A stretch of 24,633 nucleotides of DNA, from positions 1 through 24,633 of the IMG/VR virus record IMGVR_UViG_3300046467_001725; one strand, 5' to 3'. Positions 4,837 to 24,633 of the stretch are shown here, in pieces. This DNA is from a virus (Duplodnaviria; Caudoviricetes). The translations under genes were made by a program, and so were the position numbers. How positions within the stretch are numbered: position 1 is the first letter of the stretch; each line of letters starts with the position of its first letter. Below the pieces are notes generated by a model, which worked only from the letters and a program-made list of their open reading frames with translations, did no database searches and had not been told where the DNA came from.

Positions 4837-5054
4837 GCGGCCTCCTTCACGAGATCAGCCAGCAGCAGGGCGTTGTCAGCTGCCTTATGCAATTCGCGGA
4901 GAGCGTCGTAACCGATCAGCGCTTTCAGTTGCCGGTCGAACTCTTTGTTATGGCGAGTCATTGCGTTCAGTTCCTTCATAGCCTTGGAGTACTGCTGTTG
5001 CAGTGTTCCAGCAGCCTGGGGCGTCAGACGCAGCATTGGGATAGCGCGACTCAT
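4833..5054 (-). CDS. Hypothetical protein (73 aa, helical)
   Basis: ATG 5054 is in ATGA overlap with the upstream gene, SD GGAGG; MSRAIPMLRLTPQAAG...KEAA. Confidence 0.75.
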   Translation of the reverse strand: MSRAIPMLRLTPQAAGTLQQQYSKAMKELNAMTRHNKEFDRQLKALIGYDALRELHKAADNALLLADLVKEAA

Positions 5055-5449
5055 GCTGCATCCTCCTGATAGAAGGAATCCAACTCGGCGGCCATGCTCA
5101 AAGCGTGGTCGCGCAGAATGAGTGCTTGAGTTGCGTGGCCTTCCGATTTGATCGCTTGAAAGAAGTCGGCGGCGAGTTTGAGTTTTCCCGCGATGGCCGT
5201 CAGGATCTGACGGTCCTGGGGTTCCCTGATCAAAATCAGTTCGAGGCGTTCGCATCGGCGCGTGGCCTTTTCAAGAGCGGTAGCACTCGACGACTCGCCC
5301 TCCTCAATGCCCTCGATGTAGCCATTAGTGTGGCCATCGTCATAACCGTCAGCCCAGCCATCCTTCAAGCCGCCCCGATACCCGACCCAATACAAAATGG
5401 CGAGTGCGATTACGAAGGTGACCAGTGCGAAAACTTCAAAAAATGTCAT
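5051..5449 (-). CDS. Hypothetical membrane-anchored protein with GxxxG repeats
   Basis: N-terminal TM helix, then GYRGGLKDGWADGYDDGHTNGYIEGIEEG; SD AGGAG. Confidence 0.8.
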   Translation of the reverse strand: MTFFEVFALVTFVIALAILYWVGYRGGLKDGWADGYDDGHTNGYIEGIEEGESSSATALEKATRRCERLELILIREPQDRQILTAIAGKLKLAADFFQAIKSEGHATQALILRDHALSMAAELDSFYQEDAA

Positions 5450-5505
5450 GTGGTGTGCTCCTGTGGTGTCACTTAAGCTGGTGGTGGCAGCAGTGTTGAA
5501 ACGGG

Positions 5506-5703
5506 TTATTCGTGATCAGGATCTGGTGGATCGGCCAGGCCACACATCAGCTTGGCTTGGTACGGCATGTAGCCTTCCTCGCGCAGATCGTCGTATAGGC
5601 GGTAGTCGGCGGCGAGATGGCTGCAGTGCCCGCAAAGTCGGTCGGGTGTTCTGTTCGCCGATAACTGTGCCCGGCAGTGTCGGCAATAGTCTTGAAGTGA
5701 CAT
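5506..5703 (-). CDS. Small CxxC...CxxC zinc-finger protein (65 aa)
   Basis: MSLQDYCRHC...LCGHCS; SD GGAG upstream of ATG 5703. Confidence 0.7.
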   Translation of the reverse strand: MSLQDYCRHCRAQLSANRTPDRLCGHCSHLAADYRLYDDLREEGYMPYQAKLMCGLADPPDPDHE

Positions 5704-5704
5704 G

Positions 5705-6028
5705 TCAGTTTTCCTCCGAATCGCTATGAGGTCTCGGCATGGCCTGGTCCGCCTGGTAAGCACGAATATCGATCAGCGCCGCGACATGCCTGATGTGTGC
5801 ATAACGCAGAGCTTTACCGCTGAGATCCAAGGTGGTCACCGGCAACTGAATCCGTCCGCTGTTGATTGCCTCGGTAAACGTCTTCTCGTTGATGTTTTTG
5901 AAGTAGTGCGCGTGCACCTTTTCCATGGGAATAAGCACATCGCCGAAGATGCGGTGCAGCATCTCGATGGTGGACGGATCTGGTGCGGGCAGCAGCCGGA
6001 TTGGTTGCTGGCCGACGTTGGCGGTCAT
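5705..6028 (-). CDS. Pyocin activator PrtN-family protein
   Basis: T.EMLHRIFGDVLIP.EKV...YF.N.N..TF...I.SGRI.LPV..LD.S.KA..Y.HIRH.AA.ID.RA pattern. Confidence 0.85.
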   Translation of the reverse strand: MTANVGQQPIRLLPAPDPSTIEMLHRIFGDVLIPMEKVHAHYFKNINEKTFTEAINSGRIQLPVTTLDLSGKALRYAHIRHVAALIDIRAYQADQAMPRPHSDSEEN

Positions 6029-6459
6029 TTGGCCTCCAGGCTGGAGAGGTCATAGGCGTGGGCCCCCAGCTTGCAAAGGTCATAGGCGTTGTCTCGGAGA
6101 GAGCGCAGCACTTCCGCTGGGGAGTTGCCGTACCCCGAAAGAATGGTCTTGCCGTTGTCAAACCCATGAGGGTTGTGGATATAGACTGCAATTTTTGGGA
6201 CTGCGCGATTAGACAGGCGGAACTCCGTGGTAACGGTGCTATTTGGATTCAGGGACACAACGTCCAACTGGTTTGCGAGTAGCAGTACAGCTGCATGCAG
6301 TTCTGGCAGGCTGGACAGCGTTGATGGGGGCGCATCAGCCGTTACCCCGGCAGCACTGCAAACCAAATGAGCGAAACCTTGGATCTGCTCTGGGGTTCGC
6401 TCGACGGCCTTTGTAGAAAGCAACTGGTTCAGCGCTTGATCAATCAGTTTGTGGTCCAT
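6025..6459 (-). CDS. Hypothetical protein (144 aa)
   Basis: ATG 6459 with a purine-rich SD; stop overlaps the PrtN-like start (ATGA). Confidence 0.7.
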   Translation of the reverse strand: MDHKLIDQALNQLLSTKAVERTPEQIQGFAHLVCSAAGVTADAPPSTLSSLPELHAAVLLLANQLDVVSLNPNSTVTTEFRLSNRAVPKIAVYIHNPHGFDNGKTILSGYGNSPAEVLRSLRDNAYDLCKLGAHAYDLSSLEAK

Positions 6460-6625
6460 GGCTTCTCTTCCTCTTGGGATGATTCCAGGCAATAAGGCAG
6501 TGTTTTTTCGTCAGATCGCGCAGGTGTTCCGGTACTTCGAGGAGCGCAGCATTGCGCTCCTCGCGTGTGCGCATGGCAACGATCTGGCGGGCGTACTCGC
6601 GCGGCCATGCTTCTGGCTGTCTCAT
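6440..6625 (-). CDS. Hypothetical protein (61 aa)
   Basis: TAATG overlap with the upstream gene; WPREYARQI...ERNAALLEVPEHLR. Confidence 0.75.
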   Translation of the reverse strand: MRQPEAWPREYARQIVAMRTREERNAALLEVPEHLRDLTKKHCLIAWNHPKRKRSHGPQTD

Positions 6626-6915
6626 TACGCGACTTCTCGCGGGTCAGGCACGGCGGGTGGGGCTGGGCGCTCAATACCGATCTGCCTGGCCAGCCAGGAA
6701 ATGCCAATGTCCGTCACGCGCGTGGTGCGCTTGTATTGCATGCCATACTTCTCGTGAAACCAGCGACTCTCACGGGTGACCAAAAAGTCTTTGGTAGCGG
6801 CAGGGTTGGTTGGCAGGTTGTGTTGATCCAGCAGGCCTTTGTCGCGCATGCGTTTCATCAGCTCGCGGTGACCCAAACCAAGGCGTTCGGCTACGCGTTT
6901 GAGGGATAAGCTCAC
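6625..6915 (-). CDS. Phage antirepressor KilAC(ANT)-domain protein
   Basis: LKRVAERLGLGHRELMKRMRDKGLL...NLP...TTRVTDIGISWLA; GTG start with GAGG SD. Confidence 0.75.
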   Translation of the reverse strand: MSLSLKRVAERLGLGHRELMKRMRDKGLLDQHNLPTNPAATKDFLVTRESRWFHEKYGMQYKRTTRVTDIGISWLARQIGIERPAPPAVPDPREVA

Positions 6916-6924
6916 GGCGGCACC

Positions 6925-7488
6925 TCATGCGGCGGCTGCGAGGCTATTGCGGTAGCCCTGCAGGAATTGATTGAGGTTTTCAGCCAACATTGCGTAGGCG
7001 CGCTGGTTGTCGGCGGGCAGGGTGAGTAGGCAGCCGGCGTCGTCGTCGATTTCGAGCTTGGCGATATAGCCGCCGCGTGGGTTGCGCTGGATCTGGAGCG
7101 AGGGCTCCAGTTCGTCAGCGATCAGATGGTAAATGCCGCGCCCACGTCGGATAGCCAGACGTAGGGTGGCCTCTATATCGCTGACAGCTTCATGCTCATC
7201 TACGTCGGGCACCCCGGTAGGGCTGCGGCCGTTGGCGATACCTTCGATAAAGCTCGCAACGCGCGTGGCGTTGTTTTTGCGGTTCTTATCGAGGGTGACT
7301 GACGTATTGAGCGTCCCGCAGATGCGCACCATCACCGTGATGCCGGCGGTGCACTGTTCAATCTCGACCTGAGCCGCTACGGATTGGCAGCCATCACACG
7401 AATGCAGGGTGTGATTGAACGTGCCGCTAAGGTTTACCTGGGCCTGGAGGCGAATATAGGCGGCGGCGTTGAGAGATAGTCTGCTCAT
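6925..7488 (-). CDS. Hypothetical protein (187 aa)
   Basis: Start reassigned to ATG 7488 (SD GGAGG, ATGA overlap with the 56-aa ORF). Confidence 0.75.
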   Translation of the reverse strand: MSRLSLNAAAYIRLQAQVNLSGTFNHTLHSCDGCQSVAAQVEIEQCTAGITVMVRICGTLNTSVTLDKNRKNNATRVASFIEGIANGRSPTGVPDVDEHEAVSDIEATLRLAIRRGRGIYHLIADELEPSLQIQRNPRGGYIAKLEIDDDAGCLLTLPADNQRAYAMLAENLNQFLQGYRNSLAAAA

Positions 7489-7655
7489 GCGGCACGCCCT
7501 CCATCGTCTGGATTGAAGGGGGGAGGGGTAGGGCTGGTGGTTGATTTGCGTTTGGTGGGAGCGAAGGCGCAGCCGTGGATTATGGCTAGGCGGCGCACCT
7601 CGAAAACGCGGCTTTCTGGGCACGTTGGGAGTACGTGCAAGGTTGCTGCTTGCAT
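7485..7655 (-). CDS. 56-aa first gene of the leftward operon (absent from the ORF track)
   Basis: MQAATLHVLPTCPESRVFEVRRLAIIHGCAFAPTKRKSTTSPTPPPFNPDDGGRAA; SD GAGG; ATGA overlap with the next gene. Confidence 0.75.
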   Translation of the reverse strand: MQAATLHVLPTCPESRVFEVRRLAIIHGCAFAPTKRKSTTSPTPPPFNPDDGGRAA

Positions 7656-7663
7656 GGGAATTG

Positions 7664-7689
7664 CCTCACTCTGTGGTGGAAGAGTGAGG
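7664..7689 (-). promoter_or_regulatory. PL leader hairpin with TCCACCAC loop overlapping the SD of the first early gene
   Basis: Minus strand CCTCACTCT-TCCACCAC-AGAGTGAGG, perfect 9-bp stem. Confidence 0.75.
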
Positions 7690-7691
7690 AG

Positions 7692-7733
7692 AAAATAACT
7701 TAGGTTTTAATTTGGCGCAATAACCTAGCGATT
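7692..7733 (-). promoter_or_regulatory. Putative PL promoter with two OL operators
   Basis: Minus strand -35 TTGCGC (7720-7715), 17 bp, -10 TATTTT (7697-7692). Operators ATAACTTAGGTTTT (7695-7708) and ATAACCTAGCGATT (7720-7733) resemble the OR sites. Confidence 0.65.
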
Positions 7734-8517
7734 AATTTTTGGCGAGGAGTGAAGAATTTATAAGATTCAGGGTGGACCACCAAAAAATTCTACCGATTAT
7801 TTGAATGCGCTGTTCCATCACCTCCTCGAACGAATAATCTTCGTCGGCGTATTCTTCGCGGTTGAAGCTTCTTAGGCGAATGCCACCGGGGATACGGTAG
7901 AGAAATTTGACCCTCAATAGACCGTCATGATCGAGCGCATAAATTTGCCCGTCGATGATCTTGGTCGTTCCCTTGTCAACGCCAAGCGTCGCGCGGTCAA
8001 GGATTAGTGGATGGTTAGAATTACCCGTATTCGTGGCGCACGCTGCGTTAGAGGGATCCACACCTGCTTTGCGCAATGTGTAGCTGGAAAACCAAACCTT
8101 GCGCCCTTCGTCAATCTGGACCGTTGATTTTCCAAGCCCTGAAGCTATCTCGACTTCCTTGTAAAGTGGCAAGGCGATCTCCCCTGCTTCCATTGGGGTT
8201 AAATCGTCCCATAGCGAAAGCTCCCCGAGAACAAAAGGGGAGCCGTCGTGTGGACGAAGCTTGTGGGTGGCTTCGTTGGTCGATTGCGAGCCAGGGGCGA
8301 TACCCAGCTCAAGCCAATCCACGTCGACCTGAAGTGCTCGTGCTATTGCAGGTAGGAACCGACTTTTTTGGGACTTACCAGAGCTTATCTTCTGAATGCT
8401 TGCTTGTGTGCACCCAGCAGCTGTAGCTAAAGCCTCTTGGCTGAGGCTGCGCTGAGACATCGCATGATTTAGGCGATCTGCGAGGGTGGGTAGCTGAGTT
8501 TTATCTAAATAGTTCAT
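7732..8517 (-). CDS. cI: CI-like repressor (XRE HTH + S24 peptidase; PrtR-like)
   Basis: TLADRL...LSQEALA.AAG.TQASIQKI..G HTH; S24 region GNS.HP and RVKFLY; divergent from cro. Confidence 0.93.
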   Translation of the reverse strand: MNYLDKTQLPTLADRLNHAMSQRSLSQEALATAAGCTQASIQKISSGKSQKSRFLPAIARALQVDVDWLELGIAPGSQSTNEATHKLRPHDGSPFVLGELSLWDDLTPMEAGEIALPLYKEVEIASGLGKSTVQIDEGRKVWFSSYTLRKAGVDPSNAACATNTGNSNHPLILDRATLGVDKGTTKIIDGQIYALDHDGLLRVKFLYRIPGGIRLRSFNREEYADEDYSFEEVMEQRIQIIGRIFWWSTLNLINSSLLAKN

Positions 8518-8526
8518 GAATGCAGG

Positions 8527-8594
8527 TTATAACTCTGGTTATAAAAAGTCCAACAGCTAAAGTTGTTGACCGATTAATCTCAAGGTTATAATCT
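8527..8594 (+). promoter_or_regulatory. OR operator cluster and PR promoter
   Basis: Palindrome TTATAAC-TCTG-GTTATAA (8527-8544), ACAGCTAAAGTTGT (8553-8566) and AATCTCAAGGTTAT (8576-8589), spaced 23-24 bp. -35 TTGACC (8566), 17 bp, -10 TAATCT (8589). Confidence 0.7.
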
Positions 8595-8624
8595 CTGCAT
8601 CGTTTACTCATTTGAGGTCTTCTC

Positions 8625-8912
8625 ATGACTACAAATTGCCTTGAACAAACTGGCCCGGTTGCCGGAACCGTTTCCGAAGGCCATGCCGCGCTTATGCGAG
8701 TTCTAGAGGTCTGTGGTAACAACCAATCTGAATTGGCTCGTCGCTGCAATGTTAAGCAGCCGCACGTTTGGAAGTGGCTTAAGACGGGGCGGGTGCCTAC
8801 AGAGCGTGTTCATTCGGTTGCTCGGGCCTCGGAAGGCAAGGTTCAACCTCACGAGCTGCGCCCGGATCTACCAGACCTTTTCCCGGTACCTATTTTTCAA
8901 GCTGCTGCATAA
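8625..8912 (+). CDS. cro: Cro-like repressor (YdaS/Cro family)
   Basis: NQSELARRCNVKQPHVWKWL...VP.ER...V.PHELRPDL; divergent from cI. Confidence 0.9.
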   Translation: MTTNCLEQTGPVAGTVSEGHAALMRVLEVCGNNQSELARRCNVKQPHVWKWLKTGRVPTERVHSVARASEGKVQPHELRPDLPDLFPVPIFQAAA

Positions 8913-8919
8913 GGCTTAG

Positions 8920-8943
8920 AAAAAAGGCGACCGAAAGGCCGCC
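8920..8943 (-). terminator. Intrinsic terminator oriented for a leftward (antisense) transcript
   Basis: Minus strand GGCGGCC-TTTC-GGTCGCC-TTTTTT; the central G-U pair and the U-tract exist only on the minus strand. Confidence 0.6.
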
Positions 8944-8951
8944 CAGTTCCT

Positions 8952-9246
8952 CCCGGCAGACACCACCACAGTGCTGTCGGGTCGCGATAAAAGTCGGCGG
9001 GCACACCACATGCTAAACCGCCTCCTTTTACCGCGCTGCCAAGGCACGGATGCCTTGGGTTGCTGCCTCCTCCACCACAGATCAGGCAGCTGTTGCGCCA
9101 GAGGTGAGTGACGGATCGTTCGCCTCGGCACGGTGCCGGTTTTGATCTTGAGGATCTGACCGGCGTTTGGGCCCTTTCAAGCCACGCGGCAAATGTATCA
9201 CTACTGCACGCCGCGCGGCACTGGCAACTTATAAGGATTAATGCCA
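8952..9246 (+). ncRNA. Putative structured cis-regulatory leader RNA between cro and cII (hairpin array)
   Basis: Eight consecutive stem-loops: three CACCACA loops (8964, 9004, 9073), one TCACTAC loop (9198), two A-CGGA-T loops (9047, 9112), one TTGAG loop (9148) and one stem enclosing the cII SD. G-U pairs mostly favour the plus strand. Confidence 0.7.
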
Positions 9247-9764
9247 TGAGCCGAATCGCTCTGAGTTGCGTTGATCGAGCAACGCGGGAAATCCTGCCCC
9301 TCGATTTGGCGCTCTACCATGCCGCTCGGGATTATCCCGGTGGCGCAGCAGCAATAGCCGCCACCACTGGCCGCAATCCCACCACCCTTCAGCACAAGCT
9401 TTCTCCAACGCACCCCAGCCACTCCGTGAATATTCAGGAGTTCGGCGAAATTCTCGAACTGACTAAAGACCGCCGCATTCTTGATGCGGTGCATGCCTTA
9501 GTGGGTGACACAACCTGGCAAGAGCTGGCTGAGGCATACACCAACGACATGCCGGAAACCCTAACCACGGGAATTGCGGAGTATTTCAGGCGGGTAGCTG
9601 ATCTGGCGGATACCTGGGCCAAAAGCATTGGCGACGGGGTTGTTAGTGACCACGAACTGGCCGAGATACACCTGCAGGTGTTCCGAGGTATTCAAGCGTT
9701 GTTAGGGATGTTGAACCGCGCCGCTTATGTTAACGAATCGACTCGAGGTGCGAGCCATGGGTGA
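9246..9764 (+). CDS. cII: Phage regulatory protein CII (CP76-like family)
   Basis: ALYHAARDYPGG..AIA...G.N.TTLQHKLSP; start reassigned to ATG 9246 (SD AAGGA). Confidence 0.85.
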   Translation: MSRIALSCVDRATREILPLDLALYHAARDYPGGAAAIAATTGRNPTTLQHKLSPTHPSHSVNIQEFGEILELTKDRRILDAVHALVGDTTWQELAEAYTNDMPETLTTGIAEYFRRVADLADTWAKSIGDGVVSDHELAEIHLQVFRGIQALLGMLNRAAYVNESTRGASHG

Positions 9765-9984
9765 CATTGCGGACTTTGCCAATGACCTAGTGCAAGAGAG
9801 TCTGGATCAAGCGCTCGCCGCCCGAAACGCAGCGAAATCGCCATTTGTGAACCACTCATTTTTGCTCTGTGAAGCCTGTGATGACCCTATTCCTGAAGCT
9901 CGGCGCATAGCCCAGCAGGGTTGCACTCTCTGTATTGATTGCAAAAATTTAGATGATCTACGGCGCGCTCGCTATGCTCGATGA
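9757..9984 (+). CDS. TraR/DksA C4 zinc-finger protein
   Basis: MGDIADFAND...CEACDDPIPEARR...GCTLCIDC; SD GAGG. Confidence 0.9.
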   Translation: MGDIADFANDLVQESLDQALAARNAAKSPFVNHSFLLCEACDDPIPEARRIAQQGCTLCIDCKNLDDLRRARYAR

Positions 9985-12193
9985 AGTCCTCGGTCAGTTT
10001 GCAGACTACGGCCTGGATCCCAAGCTACCTTTGGAGTTTGGCAAAATCACCCGTTGCAAGGCCGCACAGGACAAGGGCAAGGAGAAGAATGGGTGGTATG
10101 TCATTCATGAGTATAAAACCCAGAAAAATGAGACGTTAATCTTCGGTGCGTTTGGCGACTGGCGTTCCGGCGAAACCCAGAAAATTAAGGTCAAAGCCGG
10201 ACGCATGAGCTCCGAGGAACGCGAGGTCATGCGCGCTCGTCAGGAGGAAGCCAAACTTCGAGCGGCGGAGATCGCGGCCAGTTCGGCGCGGCGCGCTGCC
10301 AGCCGTGCTGCGGGTCTGTTTAAACGTATGCCCGAGAAGGGCAAGAGTGCCTATCTGGACCGAAAGCAGATCGTCGGTTTCAAAGTTCGTTATGCACCGC
10401 GTACTGGCGCATTTTTAGTGCCTATGTGCAATGTGCGGGATCAGATCGTCGGCTTGCAAGTGATCTTCCCGGAAAAGCAAGAAGATACCGGGCGTGATAA
10501 AGCGTACTGGCCCTACGGCATGTCGAAAGAGGGCGCCTTCCACTTGATTGGCCCCCATCCTGAACCAGGGGAGCCTGTATTGGTGTGTGAGGGCTACGCC
10601 ACGGGCGCTAGCCTGCATATGGCGACGTCGCTCACCGTCGCGATTGCCTTTGACGCAGGTAATTTGCTGCCAGTTTCCAAAGCAATGCGTGAGCGTTTTC
10701 CCGGTTGTCCCCTGATCGTTTGTCGCGATGATGACTGGAAGACCAAGCGACCCAATGGTGACCCCTGGAACCCAGGTGAAGAAAAGGCCAGTAACGCCGC
10801 TTTAATCGTTGGTGGCCAGGTAGTAGCGCCTGTCTTCTCCGTTGAACGTGAAATCAAATGGACCGACTTCAACGACCTGCATGTTGCCGAGGGATTGGAG
10901 GCCGTTCGCCGCCAGGTGTTGGCGGTGGTCAAACCACCTGCAGCAGGAGGATGGAAGGATCGATTGGCCCGTACTGAAAACGGCTCGCTCATCGCGCACA
11001 TGCAAAATGTCGAACTCATTCTGGGCAATGACGAACGCTGGGCCGGAGTTATCGGTTACAGCGTATTCAGTTCCAAAATTGTCAAACTCCGATCCCCACC
11101 CTTTGGCGGCGGAGTCGGTGACTGGGCCGACATAGATGACATGCGAGTGATGAAGTGGCTCGCGCAGCAATACAACCTGAGAGTCAAGGCAACCCACGTG
11201 ATCGAGGCCGTGAGCGTGGTCGCCCACGACCATTCTTTTCATCCGGTATGTGAATACTTGGAAAAGCTGGAGTGGGACCGCGTCCCTCGACTGGGGAGCT
11301 GGCTGACGGATGTGATGGGTGTTCTGCCAACTGAGTATTCGAGCAAGGTCGGCAAGCGCTGGCTCATCTCTGCGGTAGCACGGGTAATGCGGCCAGGCTG
11401 CAAAGCAGACTCTGTTTTGATCCTCGAGGGCGGTCAGGGCGAGGGCAAATCCACCGCCATCGGCATCCTCGGTGGTGAGTGGTTCATGGATACGCCATTC
11501 GCCCTGGGCGACAAAGACAGCTTTCAGGCTATTCGAGGTAAATGGTTAGTCGAGTTGGGGGAGTTAGACAGTTTCAATAAGGCCGAGAGTACCAAGGCCA
11601 AGCAATTTTTTTCAGCATCGACCGACACCTATCGCGAGAGTTATGGCCGAAGAACAAACGACGTGCCACGCCAGTGTGTGTTCGTGGGCACCACCAACCA
11701 AGAGGAATATCTCAAGGATGCTACAGGCAACCGCCGCTATTGGCCGGTGTTCTGCAATAAGGTCGACTTAGACACGCTGCGCGAGATCCGTGATCAATTG
11801 TGGGCCGAGGCGTTGGTTTGCTTTGAGGCCGGTGATATTTGGTGGGTAACGAGAGACGAGTCATGGATGTTTGCCGAGGCCCAGGACGAACGCTTTGTGG
11901 TGGATGAATGGGAGGGGCTGATTCTGACTTGGTTGGAAGAGTCGCAGATCGGCGAGACCGCCACCGGCAATGAGATTTTGAGCCAGGCCCTGAAGCTGGA
12001 CTATGGCCACTGGGGCAAGCCCGAACAGATGCGAGTAGGGGCGATCATGCATCGTCTGGGGTGGCGGAAAAAGCGCATGCCGGCATTGGCGAAGAGCGGC
12101 GTGCGGCCATGGGCCTATCAGAAACCGGAAGGGTGGGGGCGCGCTTCAACGCTGCAGCAGACCTCGGTAGAGGAGCCATGCTTCGATGATTAA
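9974..12193 (+). CDS. Toprim primase fused to VapE/VirE-family helicase
   Basis: Toprim CEGYATG...AFDAGNL...DDD...TDFNDL; Walker A GGQGEGKST; ELGELD; GTTN...D.TGNRRYWP. Confidence 0.92.
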   Translation: MLDEVLGQFADYGLDPKLPLEFGKITRCKAAQDKGKEKNGWYVIHEYKTQKNETLIFGAFGDWRSGETQKIKVKAGRMSSEEREVMRARQEEAKLRAAEIAASSARRAASRAAGLFKRMPEKGKSAYLDRKQIVGFKVRYAPRTGAFLVPMCNVRDQIVGLQVIFPEKQEDTGRDKAYWPYGMSKEGAFHLIGPHPEPGEPVLVCEGYATGASLHMATSLTVAIAFDAGNLLPVSKAMRERFPGCPLIVCRDDDWKTKRPNGDPWNPGEEKASNAALIVGGQVVAPVFSVEREIKWTDFNDLHVAEGLEAVRRQVLAVVKPPAAGGWKDRLARTENGSLIAHMQNVELILGNDERWAGVIGYSVFSSKIVKLRSPPFGGGVGDWADIDDMRVMKWLAQQYNLRVKATHVIEAVSVVAHDHSFHPVCEYLEKLEWDRVPRLGSWLTDVMGVLPTEYSSKVGKRWLISAVARVMRPGCKADSVLILEGGQGEGKSTAIGILGGEWFMDTPFALGDKDSFQAIRGKWLVELGELDSFNKAESTKAKQFFSASTDTYRESYGRRTNDVPRQCVFVGTTNQEEYLKDATGNRRYWPVFCNKVDLDTLREIRDQLWAEALVCFEAGDIWWVTRDESWMFAEAQDERFVVDEWEGLILTWLEESQIGETATGNEILSQALKLDYGHWGKPEQMRVGAIMHRLGWRKKRMPALAKSGVRPWAYQKPEGWGRASTLQQTSVEEPCFDD

Positions 12194-12551
12194 GCGAATC
12201 GATGAAATGCTCAAGATCTGGGCGCAGGATCTGCATCAACTTTCGACTGTTAGTGACCGTGGCTCGACCGGAGGCAACATAATTGCCACCTTGATGGCGT
12301 GTAAGGGTGAGTTGATACGTGGAACGCGAGGCAGTCGGGTGCTACTAGATGAGTCGGCTGATATAGAGCTAATTGTTCATAAGCACCTGCCACCTCGACT
12401 TGCGCTAGTGGTGCTGGAGCACTACTGCAACGATGAGAGCTTCCTTTCTCAAAAGCTAAAGCACTGTGCCTGTAGCTCACGGACTTATTACATGCGGTTG
12501 CATGAGGCTCACGAATTCATTCAGGGCATGCTGATGGGGAAGGCTGCATGA
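12186..12551 (+). CDS. PA0613-like protein; putative Q-type late regulator
   Basis: MI..IDE.L..WA N-terminus and C-terminal HTH (SSRTYYMRLHEAH); sits between the replication genes and the holin. Confidence 0.6.
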   Translation: MIKRIDEMLKIWAQDLHQLSTVSDRGSTGGNIIATLMACKGELIRGTRGSRVLLDESADIELIVHKHLPPRLALVVLEHYCNDESFLSQKLKHCACSSRTYYMRLHEAHEFIQGMLMGKAA

Positions 12552-12576
12552 ACCATGGCATTACTCCGCATGGCTT

Positions 12577-12854
12577 TGTCCTACTGTCCGGCCTTGTCCA
12601 ACTGCCATTTAGCGCAGTCGGACAGGCGCACGCCGCGAGATTGCTGGGCTGTCCTACTGTCCAGCCTTTGCCCATCACATGTGCATATATGCGTAGCGTG
12701 CACGTAGTCGCGCCCATGGCGCGTACGCGTGTTTGAATTTTCTCTCTCTATACACGAGAGAAAAGTAAATAAAGTTGGACAGTAGGGCAGAGCCCCGAAT
12801 TTAGGCGCTTGTAGCTGTCCTACTTAAGTGATGAATAGTAGGACAGGTAGGACA
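12577..12854. repeat. Iteron-like octamer array (consensus TGTCCTAC); putative replication origin
   Basis: 11 copies or variants in both orientations at 12577, 12585, 12595, 12617r, 12650, 12658, 12774r, 12782r, 12816, 12838r, 12847r, around a palindromic/AT-rich core. Confidence 0.75.
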
Positions 12855-12884
12855 GCGTATTAGAAGCGATAGCCGAATTGATGC

Positions 12885-12939
12885 ATTCACCCTGAGTTGT
12901 ACCTGCGTTACACCCGCGTCTCACCCATATTGATCCATG
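12885..12939 (+). repeat. Five degenerate direct repeats with 11-bp period upstream of the late promoter
   Basis: ATTCACCCTGA GTTGTACCTGC GTTACACCCGC GTCTCACCCAT ATTGATCCATG. Confidence 0.6.
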
Positions 12940-12953
12940 GCGTTAAATATCCC

Positions 12954-12982
12954 TTGCTGCCAGTAAAATCCACCTGTAAAAA
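12954..12982 (+). promoter_or_regulatory. Putative late promoter (PR'-like)
   Basis: TTGCTG-17 bp-TAAAAA ahead of the terminator and holin; weak -10 match. Confidence 0.4.
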
Positions 12983-13033
12983 GTAGTCATCTTCGATAGG
13001 TGCGGCTGCAAAGAGCGGTACACACCACCACAC

Positions 13034-13059
13034 AAAACCCGGCCCTGGCGCCGGGTTTT
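13034..13059 (+). terminator. tR'-like intrinsic terminator before the holin
   Basis: AAAACCCGGC-CCTGGC-GCCGGGTTTT. Confidence 0.7.
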
Positions 13060-13079
13060 CGCGTTTATGAGGCCGGGAA

Positions 13080-13424
13080 ATGACCAACGAACAGCAAGCG
13101 CTGGCAGAAATGCCGATCTGGTTAGTGATCGTCCTGGCCCTGGTGGGGGGGGTGTCGGGCGAGATGTGGCGAGCGGACAAGGAGGGTGCCCGGGGTTGGG
13201 CATTGATACGGCGGCTGGCCCTTCGGTCGGGCGCCTGCGTGGTGTGCGGGGTATCGGCGATCATGCTGCTGTACGCGGCGGGCATGTCGATCTGGACATC
13301 CGGCGCACTGGGATGCCTCACCGCAATGGCAGGGGCAGACGTTGCCATCGGGCTGTACGAGCGCTGGACTGCCAAGCGCCTGGGCCTCCAGGAGGCTGAA
13401 GCCAAGGGGGAGGCCGGACCTTAA
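13080..13424 (+). CDS. Phage holin (LydA/pyocin-holin-like)
   Basis: Three hydrophobic segments; MTNEQQAL.EMPIW..I.LAL.GGVSGEMWRADK.G. Confidence 0.88.
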   Translation: MTNEQQALAEMPIWLVIVLALVGGVSGEMWRADKEGARGWALIRRLALRSGACVVCGVSAIMLLYAAGMSIWTSGALGCLTAMAGADVAIGLYERWTAKRLGLQEAEAKGEAGP

Positions 13425-24190: not shown

Positions 24191-24633
24191 TTAAATTGGT
24201 TGTATTTTTTTCGATTCTTGTACTACTTGTTTTGATGATGGATAGATTCTCGCAATAATACCGTTTATCCATGATTGCATTCGGACTTCGAGTAGCCATC
24301 CCAAGAGCAGTGCGCTAGGTAGAGCTAAAAGAAAAGAGATGAATGGCGAACTATTGCCGATCATTTTCTGTGCGATGTTAAGCAATGGTTGGTGTGTGAG
24401 ATATATCGCGTAAGATATGGGGGCCAATATAATAAAGGGGCGCATAAGCCAACTGGGAATCTGTAGCTTTCTCTGTGAAATGGTTATCCCGAGGACTACG
24501 AATATTAGAGCTGCTAAATGATGGCGGAACTGCAAAATCGGATCTGTACCTAATTGCATTTCAATGTGTTTAGCTAGCTGTATCACTACCGGCAAGGACC
24601 AGAGCCCAGTCATTAGCGCAAGTCCTAATAGCA
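24191..24633 (-). CDS. Acyltransferase-3 (OafA/Oac-like) membrane protein, 3' part; moron
   Basis: Frame open to the window edge; ISYAIYLTHQP and LGWLLE motifs, several TM helices; AT-rich and opposite to the tail genes. Confidence 0.75.
   Translation of the reverse strand, partial: LLGLALMTGLWSLPVVIQLAKHIEMQLGTDPILQFRHHLAALIFVVLGITISQRKLQIPSWLMRPFIILAPISYAIYLTHQPLLNIAQKMIGNSSPFISFLLALPSALLLGWLLEVRMQSWINGIIARIYPSSKQVVQESKKIQPI

Follow-up and report, generated by a model that had tools for sequence, protein, structure and literature searches.

What reads the heptamer CACCACA, which recurs in the leaders of the left, right and late transcription units of this phage genome? The initial annotation of the DNA analysed here (24,633 nucleotides, hereafter the window) had listed seven exact intergenic copies and proposed that a protein or a trans-acting RNA recognizes them in a nut-like control system. 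All seven lie at the positions and on the strands that it gave. With our gene calls, intergenic DNA of defined sense strand amounts to ~1.4 kb, in which 0.14 copies are expected per strand; it holds seven sense copies and no antisense copy, in line with the strand bias described earlier. CACCACA is also the most frequent 7-mer of the intergenic DNA, and no 7-mer exceeded five copies in 500 Markov resamples. An eighth copy lies inside the primase gene on the non-transcribed strand (11896-11902, minus), and the whole-window total of eight is only marginally high (shuffle mean 3.97; eight reached by 5 of 100 shuffles). It is the placement of the copies, not their number in the whole window, that exceeds chance. 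Folding predictions reproduced the hairpins reported to be capped by four exact copies (7672, 8964, 9004 and 9073) and two variants (5481 and 9198); the copies at 5449, 5462 and 13026 cap no predicted hairpin. The variant at 9198 has a second cause for conservation, since it overlaps a predicted minus-strand extended -10 box. An Rfam scan of the window gave no match at E ≤ 1. Feature coordinates are collected in Table 1.

Table 1. Window coordinates of the genes, predicted RNA elements and sites discussed in the text.
Feature	Position	Strand	Remarks
132-aa gene, phrog_28176	5051..5449	minus	heads chain of overlapping genes
Target between Shine-Dalgarno and AUG of 132-aa gene	5447..5458	minus	includes the 5449-5455 copy
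Second copy (5462-5468) and CCACCAC-capped hairpin (5477-5491)	5462..5491	minus	in 56-nt gap before 132-aa gene
KilAC-domain antirepressor-like gene	6625..6915	minus	PF03374, E 4e-9; two genes downstream of PL target
56-aa gene, phrog_35204	7485..7655	minus	first of left operon; stop overlaps next start
First hairpin of leftward early (PL) transcript	7664..7689	minus	loop CCACCAC; 3' arm holds Shine-Dalgarno of 56-aa gene
cI repressor	7732..8517	minus	HTH and peptidase S24
cro	8625..8912	plus	
Predicted antisense RNA with three UGUGGUG-containing loops	8920..9185	minus	~266 nt, flanked by predicted promoter and terminator
Intrinsic terminator-like hairpin	8920..8944	minus	U6 tail; directly after cro
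Loop A	8964..8970	minus	CACCACA on plus, UGUGGUG on minus
Loop B guide	9001..9012	minus	12-nt complement of 5447-5458 start site
Hairpin with ACGGAU loop	9039..9058	plus	RsmA/RsmE-type ANGGAX
Loop D guide	9069..9081	minus	13-nt complement (one G.U) of first PL hairpin
Second ACGGAU-loop hairpin	9097..9129	plus	wobble favours plus: 96 G.T vs 5 A.C cells
Predicted extended -10 box of leftward promoter	9192..9200	minus	TG-n-TACATT; overlaps 9198 variant
TGGCA-N15-TGCCA inverted repeat, likely CII operator	9222..9246	.	over cII start
cII	9246..9764	plus	PF06892 Phage regulatory protein CII, E 7e-22
Second inverted repeat, over likely late promoter -35	12938..12962	.	one mismatch here; exact in most relatives listed
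Late-leader copy	13022..13059	plus	directly before terminator-like hairpin; uncertain target

The CACCACA sites are conserved in Pseudomonas and Halomonas prophages. Among distinct upstream regions, sense CACCAC was found in 56 of 56 for the 56-aa gene, 50 of 51 for the 132-aa gene and 32 of 48 for the holin gene, with no antisense occurrence in any of the three sets, and this conservation is position-specific across genera at about 36-43% CII identity. The expectation that the loops themselves would be invariant was not borne out: the sites persist, but their sequence changes in matched alleles. An altered loop at 9004 (loop B) is accompanied by an altered ribosome-binding site at 5447-5458; with AACCA(A/C) in loop B, the 132-aa start site also reads AACCA(A/C) in 11 of 11 loci (9 identical), against 1 of 139 otherwise. 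On a CII tree these loci occupy one deep clade and three places in the main clade, representing at least two lineages, and the remaining sites keep CACCAC while loop B and one start site change as a pair. One Halomonas locus (L130) has CACCAAT in the module and in three start regions; AACCAAT stands instead of CACCAAT at two start regions of L083 and at three each of L131 and L133. L210, L215 and L216 carry TACCACAGAGC in loop and PL site alike. Such paired alleles suggest that the start site base-pairs with the minus strand of the gap between cro and cII; in six 14-kb loci checked for other complementary copies of the variant words, that strand was the only place where they occurred. Of 37 representatives, 12 gave the strictly highest score to their own module, where about 1 would be expected, and in 30 the start regions exceeded random windows (p ≤ 0.05).

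Several observations count against an antisense reading. Independent covariation events are few; seven changes are one-sided (6 in the start site only, 1 in the loop only); L264 and L267 have an altered loop and an unaltered PL site; and P. indica L203 and Halomonas L131 and L133 have no match of at least 10 nt at the PL loop. Putida-type loci, in which the cro-cII module is duplicated, had seemed a counter-example with loops lacking a promoter, and were dropped as such once the upstream duplicate was found. In the cro-side copy of the module the terminator A-run is retained in all 9 loci listed and the -10 box in 8 of them; the PL site of L140 fits loop D of this copy and not that of the other one. 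Beyond these prophages, an isolated-phage collection yielded six CII relatives only; its DNA matches comprised stretches of about 40 nt in two P. aeruginosa phages and, for the remainder, a chance terminator match. The leader of Ralstonia phage Dina (35% CII identity) lacks CACCAC, and a search of a plasmid collection gave no match.

The RNA that we predict from the minus strand of the gap is 249-273 nt long in 156 relatives. Two-sided changes affect 25 of its 60 pairs, a number reached by 0 of 500 shuffles, with the structure derived from the same alignment. The inverted repeat over the cII start has 523 exact copies of the 15-nt spacer form in 283 loci, and at most 20 for any other spacer of 10-20. 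Its half-sites lie at about -39 and -59 from the predicted leftward start, and TAnnnT is found 22-24 nt to its left in 226 of 244 distinct leaders. Because a terminator precedes cro, the leftward transcript is predicted to end after about 266 nt. The terminator pair 8930-8939 is A.C on the plus strand (G.U on the minus) in 42 of 69 leaders; by pattern search, the A-run was found in 0 of 27 P. aeruginosa-type leaders, and it was missing from 7 of the 12 Halomonas leaders and from 7 of the 10 of indica type, which counts against the prediction.

We then asked where the loops of this RNA would pair. Among 371 sites, ranked in a manner that requires no start list, the best two were the PL loop and the 132-aa start, both above all 419 opposite-strand controls. 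Loop D at the PL hairpin ranked first (predicted -15.8 kcal/mol), and its target was also first of 36 start regions in an equilibrium cofold, a set with four start coordinates off and one window holding no start, which left the ranking of the two targets unaffected. Loop B at the 132-aa start is predicted at -14.7 kcal/mol, but at only -0.9 kcal/mol in the equilibrium cofold, a further point against antisense pairing. The PL target precedes the first gene of the early-left operon and the 132-aa target follows its largest gap, these being the operon's two main untranslated entry points; the adjoining region at 5462-5491 is a possible second contact. Of 209 loci, 195 show a promoter-YACCAY-start pattern, which the opposite strand shows in 12. 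In each of 58 relatives the PL start region contains a perfect 10-11 nt complement of the window RNA, and only 7 of these relatives match the window CI. Judged by complementarity, the predicted loops match the ribosome-binding region of an operon that carries an antirepressor-like gene. Atlas searches with both target proteins returned hypothetical clusters only.

The 56-aa gene looks like a target of the sites and not their reader, the role that had been suggested for its product. At least two sequence types of the protein exist (39-41% identity to that of the window), and the sites do not change with them. As an N-like reader it was rejected: what the family conserves is H-P and G motifs and not a stretch rich in arginine, and its variation is independent of that in the sites. 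The structural model is strand-helix-strand (pLDDT 75, pTM 0.43); against the PDB it gave no match at E ≤ 0.001, and weak similarity to eL30, at E about 0.8, was set aside.

RNA libraries and base pairs bear on the strand. Three metatranscriptome runs each contain an unstranded contig at 8971/72-9171/75, without cro or cII, which is the one piece of 20 kb that they share and has the highest depth in each. The runs may represent one campaign or a contaminant, cro and cII may be expressed despite their missing cover, and a structured sense-transcript remnant would give a contig of the same appearance. In another run (X1) all 30 bins are covered, and it is probably DNA. Wobble pairs in helices C-G mostly favour the plus strand, against the antisense reading, and a minus-strand wobble signal at hairpin A proved to be a register artefact that was gone after correction. 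The consensus energy (-88.7 for minus, -68.9 for plus) was not used as strand evidence, since the G/U-rich strand is favoured anyway. Our inference is a minus-strand RNA from this gap.

On the basis of the conservation, the matched changes, the conserved structure, the spacing of operator and -10 box, and the RNA-library contig over the gap, we favour, with fair confidence, the view that the early-left CACCACA sites are targets of an antisense RNA from the cro-cII gap that blocks early-left translation. A transcript of ~266 nt would be made leftward from a promoter that is probably activated by CII. Loop D would open the PL hairpin and loop B would cover the ribosome site of the 132-aa gene; the block would likely fall on translation and, through coupling or polarity, extend to the overlapping genes, the KilAC gene among them. 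Being fully complementary to the cII leader, the RNA would also damp the right operon, with the net effect of pushing towards, or supporting, lysogeny. Counted against this model, the terminator before cro would keep a pE-type transcript from cI. Moreover, pE of phage 186 is nearly silent without CII in the passages of PMC6593788 that treat it; by analogy, expression in a lysogen would fit poorly, unless the extended -10 box gives basal activity. Of the earlier proposal, a conserved RNA-level signal joining the left and right, and perhaps late, units survives, as does the trans-acting RNA among its candidate readers.

That a phage or host protein reads sense CACCAC loops appears unlikely to us, whether it acts in antitermination like N at nut or, like CsrA, on translation with the cro-cII leader serving as a multi-site sponge, although several observations favour it. 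Every site is on the sense strand, the sense leader is structured and has plus-strand wobble pairs, the promoterless duplicate in putida-type loci retains CACCAC loops, and in lambdoid phages, too, nutL and nutR vary together. Lambda nut and HK022 put sites lie just after PL and between cro and cII, the same two positions as here. In contrast to those systems, the sites here include extra ones in ribosome-binding regions and covary in pairs, one loop and one distant site changing jointly while the others remain CACCAC, which speaks against any protein reader; nor does the type of the 56-aa protein follow the alleles. As the initial annotation had noticed, boxA and boxB are missing: the general boxA consensus has no match in the three leaders and one 2-mismatch match in the cro-cII gap, no boxB-type loop occurs at the sites, and the only GNRA-capped hairpin is the terminator stem, so that no sense-strand boxA with boxB was found. 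The KH-domain proposal, which named a host protein, was examined from the phage side: the 27 window proteins scanned showed no KH domain, the AACCAA allele lacks YCAY, and no known RNA-binding fold emerged from the structure and atlas searches.

An RNA acting mainly in cis on the cII leader, as an OOP-like duplex leading to RNase III decay or by transcriptional interference, with the distant matches secondary, would draw on complete complementarity to that leader, a late site not above control and a convergent promoter geometry like that of 186 in the parts of PMC6593788 that describe it. Cis pairing would leave loop sequence unconstrained, yet the loops covary with sites at a distance of 1.3-3.5 kb, across repressor regions that have been swapped, and we regard this account as improbable. 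The functional RNA might instead be a processed sense fragment (about 8972-9172) bound by RsmA-type proteins, with the CACCAC loops as cleavage or spacer elements. ANGGA hairpin loops occur on the plus strand in 49 of 50 Pseudomonas representatives and on the minus strand in 2, and the RNA contig begins 1-2 nt past loop A; this leaves the matched changes at distant start sites unexplained, and six of six Halomonas representatives keep the CACCAC system without ANGGA loops. It is very improbable as the whole explanation, and can coexist with an antisense RNA. Finally, C/A-rich unstructured spacers near start codons combined with common ancestry could produce such sites as a by-product, as the marginal whole-window count and the late copy in a variable C/A-rich linker might suggest. 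Position-specific conservation across genera, the matched alleles and the two-sided stem changes largely refute this for the PL, 132-aa and cro-cII sites, a verdict that does not extend to 13026, and we give it hardly any credence overall.

The late copy itself is present in 119 of 198 distinct late leaders, and in 0 of 17 of P. aeruginosa type. It is the top partner of loop A, but at -9.8 kcal/mol it is weaker than the best control (-12.1 kcal/mol), and we rejected it as a firm target.

The antisense RNA proposed here resembles several known regulators. P4 CI and N15 CA RNAs are grouped with the P1/P7 c4 antisense RNA, which is cut from the same strand as, and upstream of, its target operon. 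The passages on c4 in PMC12197685 describe a structured phage RNA that prevents translation of an antirepressor transcript by loop pairing close to its ribosome-binding site, as a second layer of immunity. Similarly, the loops here are complementary to regions near ribosome-binding sites, in an operon with a KilAC-domain gene. In contrast to c4, the predicted RNA would start at a convergent promoter of its own within the cro-cII switch and act on the opposite operon; it uses three near-identical loops and, in the six loci, has its complementary words on the minus strand of the gap only, not upstream on the target's strand. The Rfam C4 model (RF01695) has no cmscan match in the window; in relatives, Rfam scans gave four sub-threshold, unrelated hits, each in a different relative and all of them outside the module. 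By this analogy, the RNA would work like P1 c4 RNA and is not a member of the C4 family. Lambda OOP and aQ and P22 sar are further antisense RNAs from the switch or its vicinity: OOP runs antisense to cII, and the promoter of aQ acts alongside pRE and pI, according to excerpts of PMC12197685; lambda CII acts at paQ and pI according to the Introduction of PMC7708051. These RNAs pair with the overlapping transcript, whereas here short loops co-vary with distant sites. For the promoter, 186 pE is the closest parallel. The Pfam family name (PF06892) is shared, and in geometry the half-sites are alike, two turns (20 bp) apart, at about -39/-59 here and at the -38 and -58 reported for 186 CII binding in passages of PMC6593788. 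186 pE transcribes cI, whereas here, in most fluorescens-type phages, the transcript is predicted to end at a terminator before cro. The two sense-strand ACGGAU-capped hairpins appear to fit the ANGGAX consensus of RsmA/RsmE, in its high-affinity form of a hexaloop on a stem, as given in sections of PMC4005645. They differ from RsmA/RsmE sites and the TwoAYGGAY motif in lying between CACCAC hairpins of a phage cII leader and in having no Rfam match.

Textbook accounts of the lambda-type switch describe a circuit of proteins, with repressor made from the CII-activated promoter. In these prophages, a promoter at the same position appears to yield a guide RNA directed at the other early operon. 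A bolder reading, which we hold as doubtful, is that Pseudomonas and Halomonas prophages of one widespread group turned the CII-activated establishment promoter into a multi-loop guide-RNA gene that silences early operons in trans. As the guide is common to relatives while repressors are swapped, it would confer repressor-independent cross-immunity against heteroimmune relatives, and host RsmA on the opposite strand would tie cII expression to the Gac/Rsm state; the RsmA-type loops suggest such host input into the decision. The prophage group with this arrangement spans many Pseudomonas species, and its natural matched alleles are ready-made compensatory tests. If the guide RNA is real, an RNA arm is added to the lysis-lysogeny decision, immunity may cross repressor groups, and the module would be a compact natural multi-target silencer.

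A single 24.6-kb contig makes up the window and carries most of a Pseudomonas prophage, including an integrase and an excisionase, a left early operon, cI, cro, cII, a TraR zinc finger, primase-helicase, holin and head genes; the named relatives of its CII are from Pseudomonas. All seven intergenic CACCACA copies reported in the initial annotation were located as claimed, and four of them, together with the variants CCACCAC and TCACTAC, indeed cap predicted hairpins. An eighth copy falls within the primase gene, on its non-transcribed strand. For the window as a whole the total is marginal, 8 copies being reached in 5 of 100 shuffles. The placement is beyond chance: about 1.4 kb of intergenic DNA has 7 copies where 0.14 are expected, and in 500 resamples no 7-mer was seen more than 5 times. 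All 7 are sense and 0 antisense, which answers the strand-frequency check that had been proposed. A search of the window against Rfam gave no match at E<=1.

For comparison, we fetched 282 related loci. In a first set of 85 sequences, sense CACCAC precedes the 56-aa gene that opens the leftward early (PL) transcript in 56 of 56 distinct regions; the counts are 50 of 51 for the 132-aa gene and 32 of 48 for the holin, and there are 0 antisense occurrences at each. The pattern is present in P. aeruginosa phages Haddon and U5 and Halomonas phage H4907; no CACCAC was found in the leader of Ralstonia phage Dina. We conclude that the CACCACA signal is real and conserved. Of the invariant loops and covarying stems proposed as a check, the stems are supported, with two-sided changes at 25 of 60 helix pairs among 36 representatives (0 of 500 shuffles reach that), in a test whose structure was derived from the same alignment and whose result relatedness inflates. 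The loops are not invariant, since the motif varies and includes AACCA(A/C) alleles. A 46-codon ORF lies over the hairpins (8971-9111, plus) and resembles one annotated in Haddon; indels of single bases among the aligned sequences suggest that it is non-coding.

The signal probably represents an antisense guide RNA and its targets. The RNA, predicted to be transcribed from the minus strand of the cro-cII gap, would be 266 nt long in the window and 249-273 nt in 156 relatives. An inverted repeat, TGGCA-N15-TGCCA, occurs 523 times in 283 loci (at most 20 times with any other spacer), mostly at the start of cII or at the late promoter, and a minus-strand TAnnnT hexamer lies 22-24 nt further left in 226 of 244 distinct leaders. 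In the window this hexamer is TACATT, which puts the half-sites near -39 and -59 of the predicted leftward start; the inverted repeat that phage 186 CII is reported to bind at pE lies at -38 and -58 (PMC6593788). The predicted promoter has the same position as pE, whereas the transcript here is predicted to end before cI. A wobble pair in the terminator-like hairpin favours the minus strand; the terminator pattern was found in 0 of 27 P. aeruginosa-type, 5 of 12 Halomonas and 3 of 10 indica-type leaders. The repeat, a likely CII operator, recurs over the late promoter -35 (12938-12962) and upstream of the integrase in two Halomonas loci (L083:2058-2082, L128:2018-2042), a likeness to lambda CII (paQ, pI), reportedly active at three promoters (PMC7708051).

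Seventeen putida-type loci have an intact operator at the cro side, and 9 displayed putida-type loci carry a tandem duplication of the whole hairpin module in the cro-cII gap. The cro-side copy keeps the A-run in 9 of 9 and the -10 box in 8 of 9; the cII-side copy lacks the -10 box and terminator run and retains CACCAC and ANGGA loops. In L140, one of the nine, the PL site has an 11-nt match to the cro-side loop D and matches the other copy in the core only.

Coordinates of features of the control region
Feature	Position	Strand	Remark
cI	7732-8517	minus
cro	8625-8912
cII	9246-9764		family PF06892
121-aa gene			Q position
56-aa gene	7485-7655	minus
PL site	7664-7689	minus	first hairpin of leftward early transcript
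132-aa start site	5447-5458	minus
Predicted antisense RNA	8920-9185	minus
Predicted -10	9197-9192	minus	TACATT with extended TG
Terminator-like hairpin	8944-8920	minus	U6 tail
Loop A	8964-8970	minus
Loop B	9001-9012	minus
Loop D	9069-9081	minus
Likely CII operator	9222-9246
ACGGAU-capped hairpins of cII leader	9039-9058, 9097-9129	plus
Duplicated module			L140, L142, L144, L147, L151, L153, L211, L244, L253

We scanned the predicted RNA against all transcribed strands with correction for accessibility (371 sites, 419 opposite-strand controls). The two top ranks go to the PL hairpin loop (loop D, -15.8 kcal/mol) and the start of the 132-aa gene (loop B, -14.7 kcal/mol); the best control reaches -12.1 kcal/mol. 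The late site (-9.8 kcal/mol, loop A) is not above control; it was found in 119 of 198 late leaders and 0 of 17 P. aeruginosa-type ones. Equilibrium cofolding paired loop D with both targets (-10.0 and -9.6, median -0.8); loop B (-0.9) was unsupported, because such cofolding cannot model loop-loop contacts. Of the 15 gene junctions in the left operon, 13 are overlaps or gaps of less than 10 nt; one target precedes the first gene, the other follows the largest gap (56 nt), and a gene with a KilAC antirepressor domain is found two genes downstream of the PL target. A block on the operon would spread from the targets by coupling or polarity. The operon also holds a PrtN-family gene (5705-6028).

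The initial annotation left open whether a protein or a trans-acting RNA reads the loops. Both sites were scorable in 150 of 205 loci examined. Loop B is AACCA(A/C) in 11 of these, and the 132-aa start site, where the motif lies between Shine-Dalgarno and AUG, is AACCA(A/C) in all 11 (9 identical), compared with 1 of the 139 loci with another loop B. On the CII tree one deep clade and three separate positions within the main clade account for the 11 loci, indicating at least two origins of the change. One-sided changes among scored loci affect the start site in 6 and the loop in 1. In Halomonas, the module and three start regions of L130 read CACCAAT, and L083, L131 and L133 carry AACCAAT there. 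TACCACAGAGC is common to a loop and the PL site in L210, L215 and L216; in L264 and L267 the loop has changed and the PL site has not. Start regions score better than random windows (p<=0.05) in 30 of 37 representatives, and the own module is strictly the best scorer in 12 of 37, many others carrying the common allele. In six variant loci checked, the sole complementary copy is the minus strand of the cro-cII gap. Judged from sequence comparison, such pairwise change is explained by base pairing and not by a single protein reader, so that of the two options proposed the trans RNA is supported and the protein is not. The 56-aa protein, one suggested reader, belongs to a conserved family of at least two types that does not track site alleles, and its model had no PDB match; for the other, a host KH-domain protein, the scan covered 27 proteins of the window, none of which has a KH domain. 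The reported lack of boxA agrees with our finding no good boxA in four leaders.

The sense strand may be read separately. The wobble pairs of helices C to G fit the plus strand better, and two of these hairpins are the ones with ACGGAU caps, an instance of the ANGGAX hexaloop. Of 50 Pseudomonas representatives, 49 carry such loops on plus and 2 on minus; in Halomonas 0 of 6 have them. The ANGGAX hexaloop is reported as a high-affinity RsmE site (PMC4005645). The cII leader may thus also come under the control of host RsmA, a separate possibility alongside the predicted antisense RNA.

Three seawater metatranscriptome runs each contain one contig identical to 8971/72-9171/75. In a search spanning 8600-9800, where cro and cII were equally eligible, both were uncovered; a cI piece appears at lower depth in one run. 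This is the sole piece common to the three runs over 20 kb and the deepest in each, other pieces being 151-244 nt at depth 2-5. The read-1 adapter directly precedes 8972 in two contigs; were the libraries of dUTP type, this position would imply minus-strand RNA. The contigs are strandless and the runs may represent one campaign or a contaminant, and they lend weak to moderate support to a discrete RNA from the gap. X1, a run that covers all 30 bins and is probably DNA, gave one contig with a loose end and a long T run before 9090, possibly a chimera.

Elsewhere in the window, the TraR finger, Q-position gene and holin (9757-13424) resemble the pyocin regulatory locus. The stretch at 12577-12855, between Q-position gene and late promoter, carries eleven TGTCC(T/A)(A/G)C-type 8-mers (<=1 mismatch) in both orientations, which look like origin iterons for the primase-helicase. 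An acyltransferase-domain gene opposite the tail genes (24191-24613, minus; O-antigen acetylase-like in PHROG) is a probable moron.

P1 c4 RNA is reported to use its loops for pairing close to the ribosome-binding site of the antirepressor (PMC12197685). The predicted RNA would work alike, but it does not match the c4 family model and its layout differs. The literature accessible to us, in which subscription papers are poorly covered, contained no description of such an RNA; the comparison with the motifs of PMC2864571 covered those that have an Rfam entry. Across loci L002-L080 the distance from cII to the 56-aa gene is 1.4-4.5 kb, and the window's CI is matched in only 7 of 58, indicating that the region of the repressor is exchanged and acquires insertions, with the RNA module and its targets left in place. 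In 58 of 58 close relatives the PL start region includes a perfect complement, 10-11 nt long, of the window's RNA. On our boldest reading of this, set against the 7 of 58 for CI, the guide RNA might confer cross-immunity.
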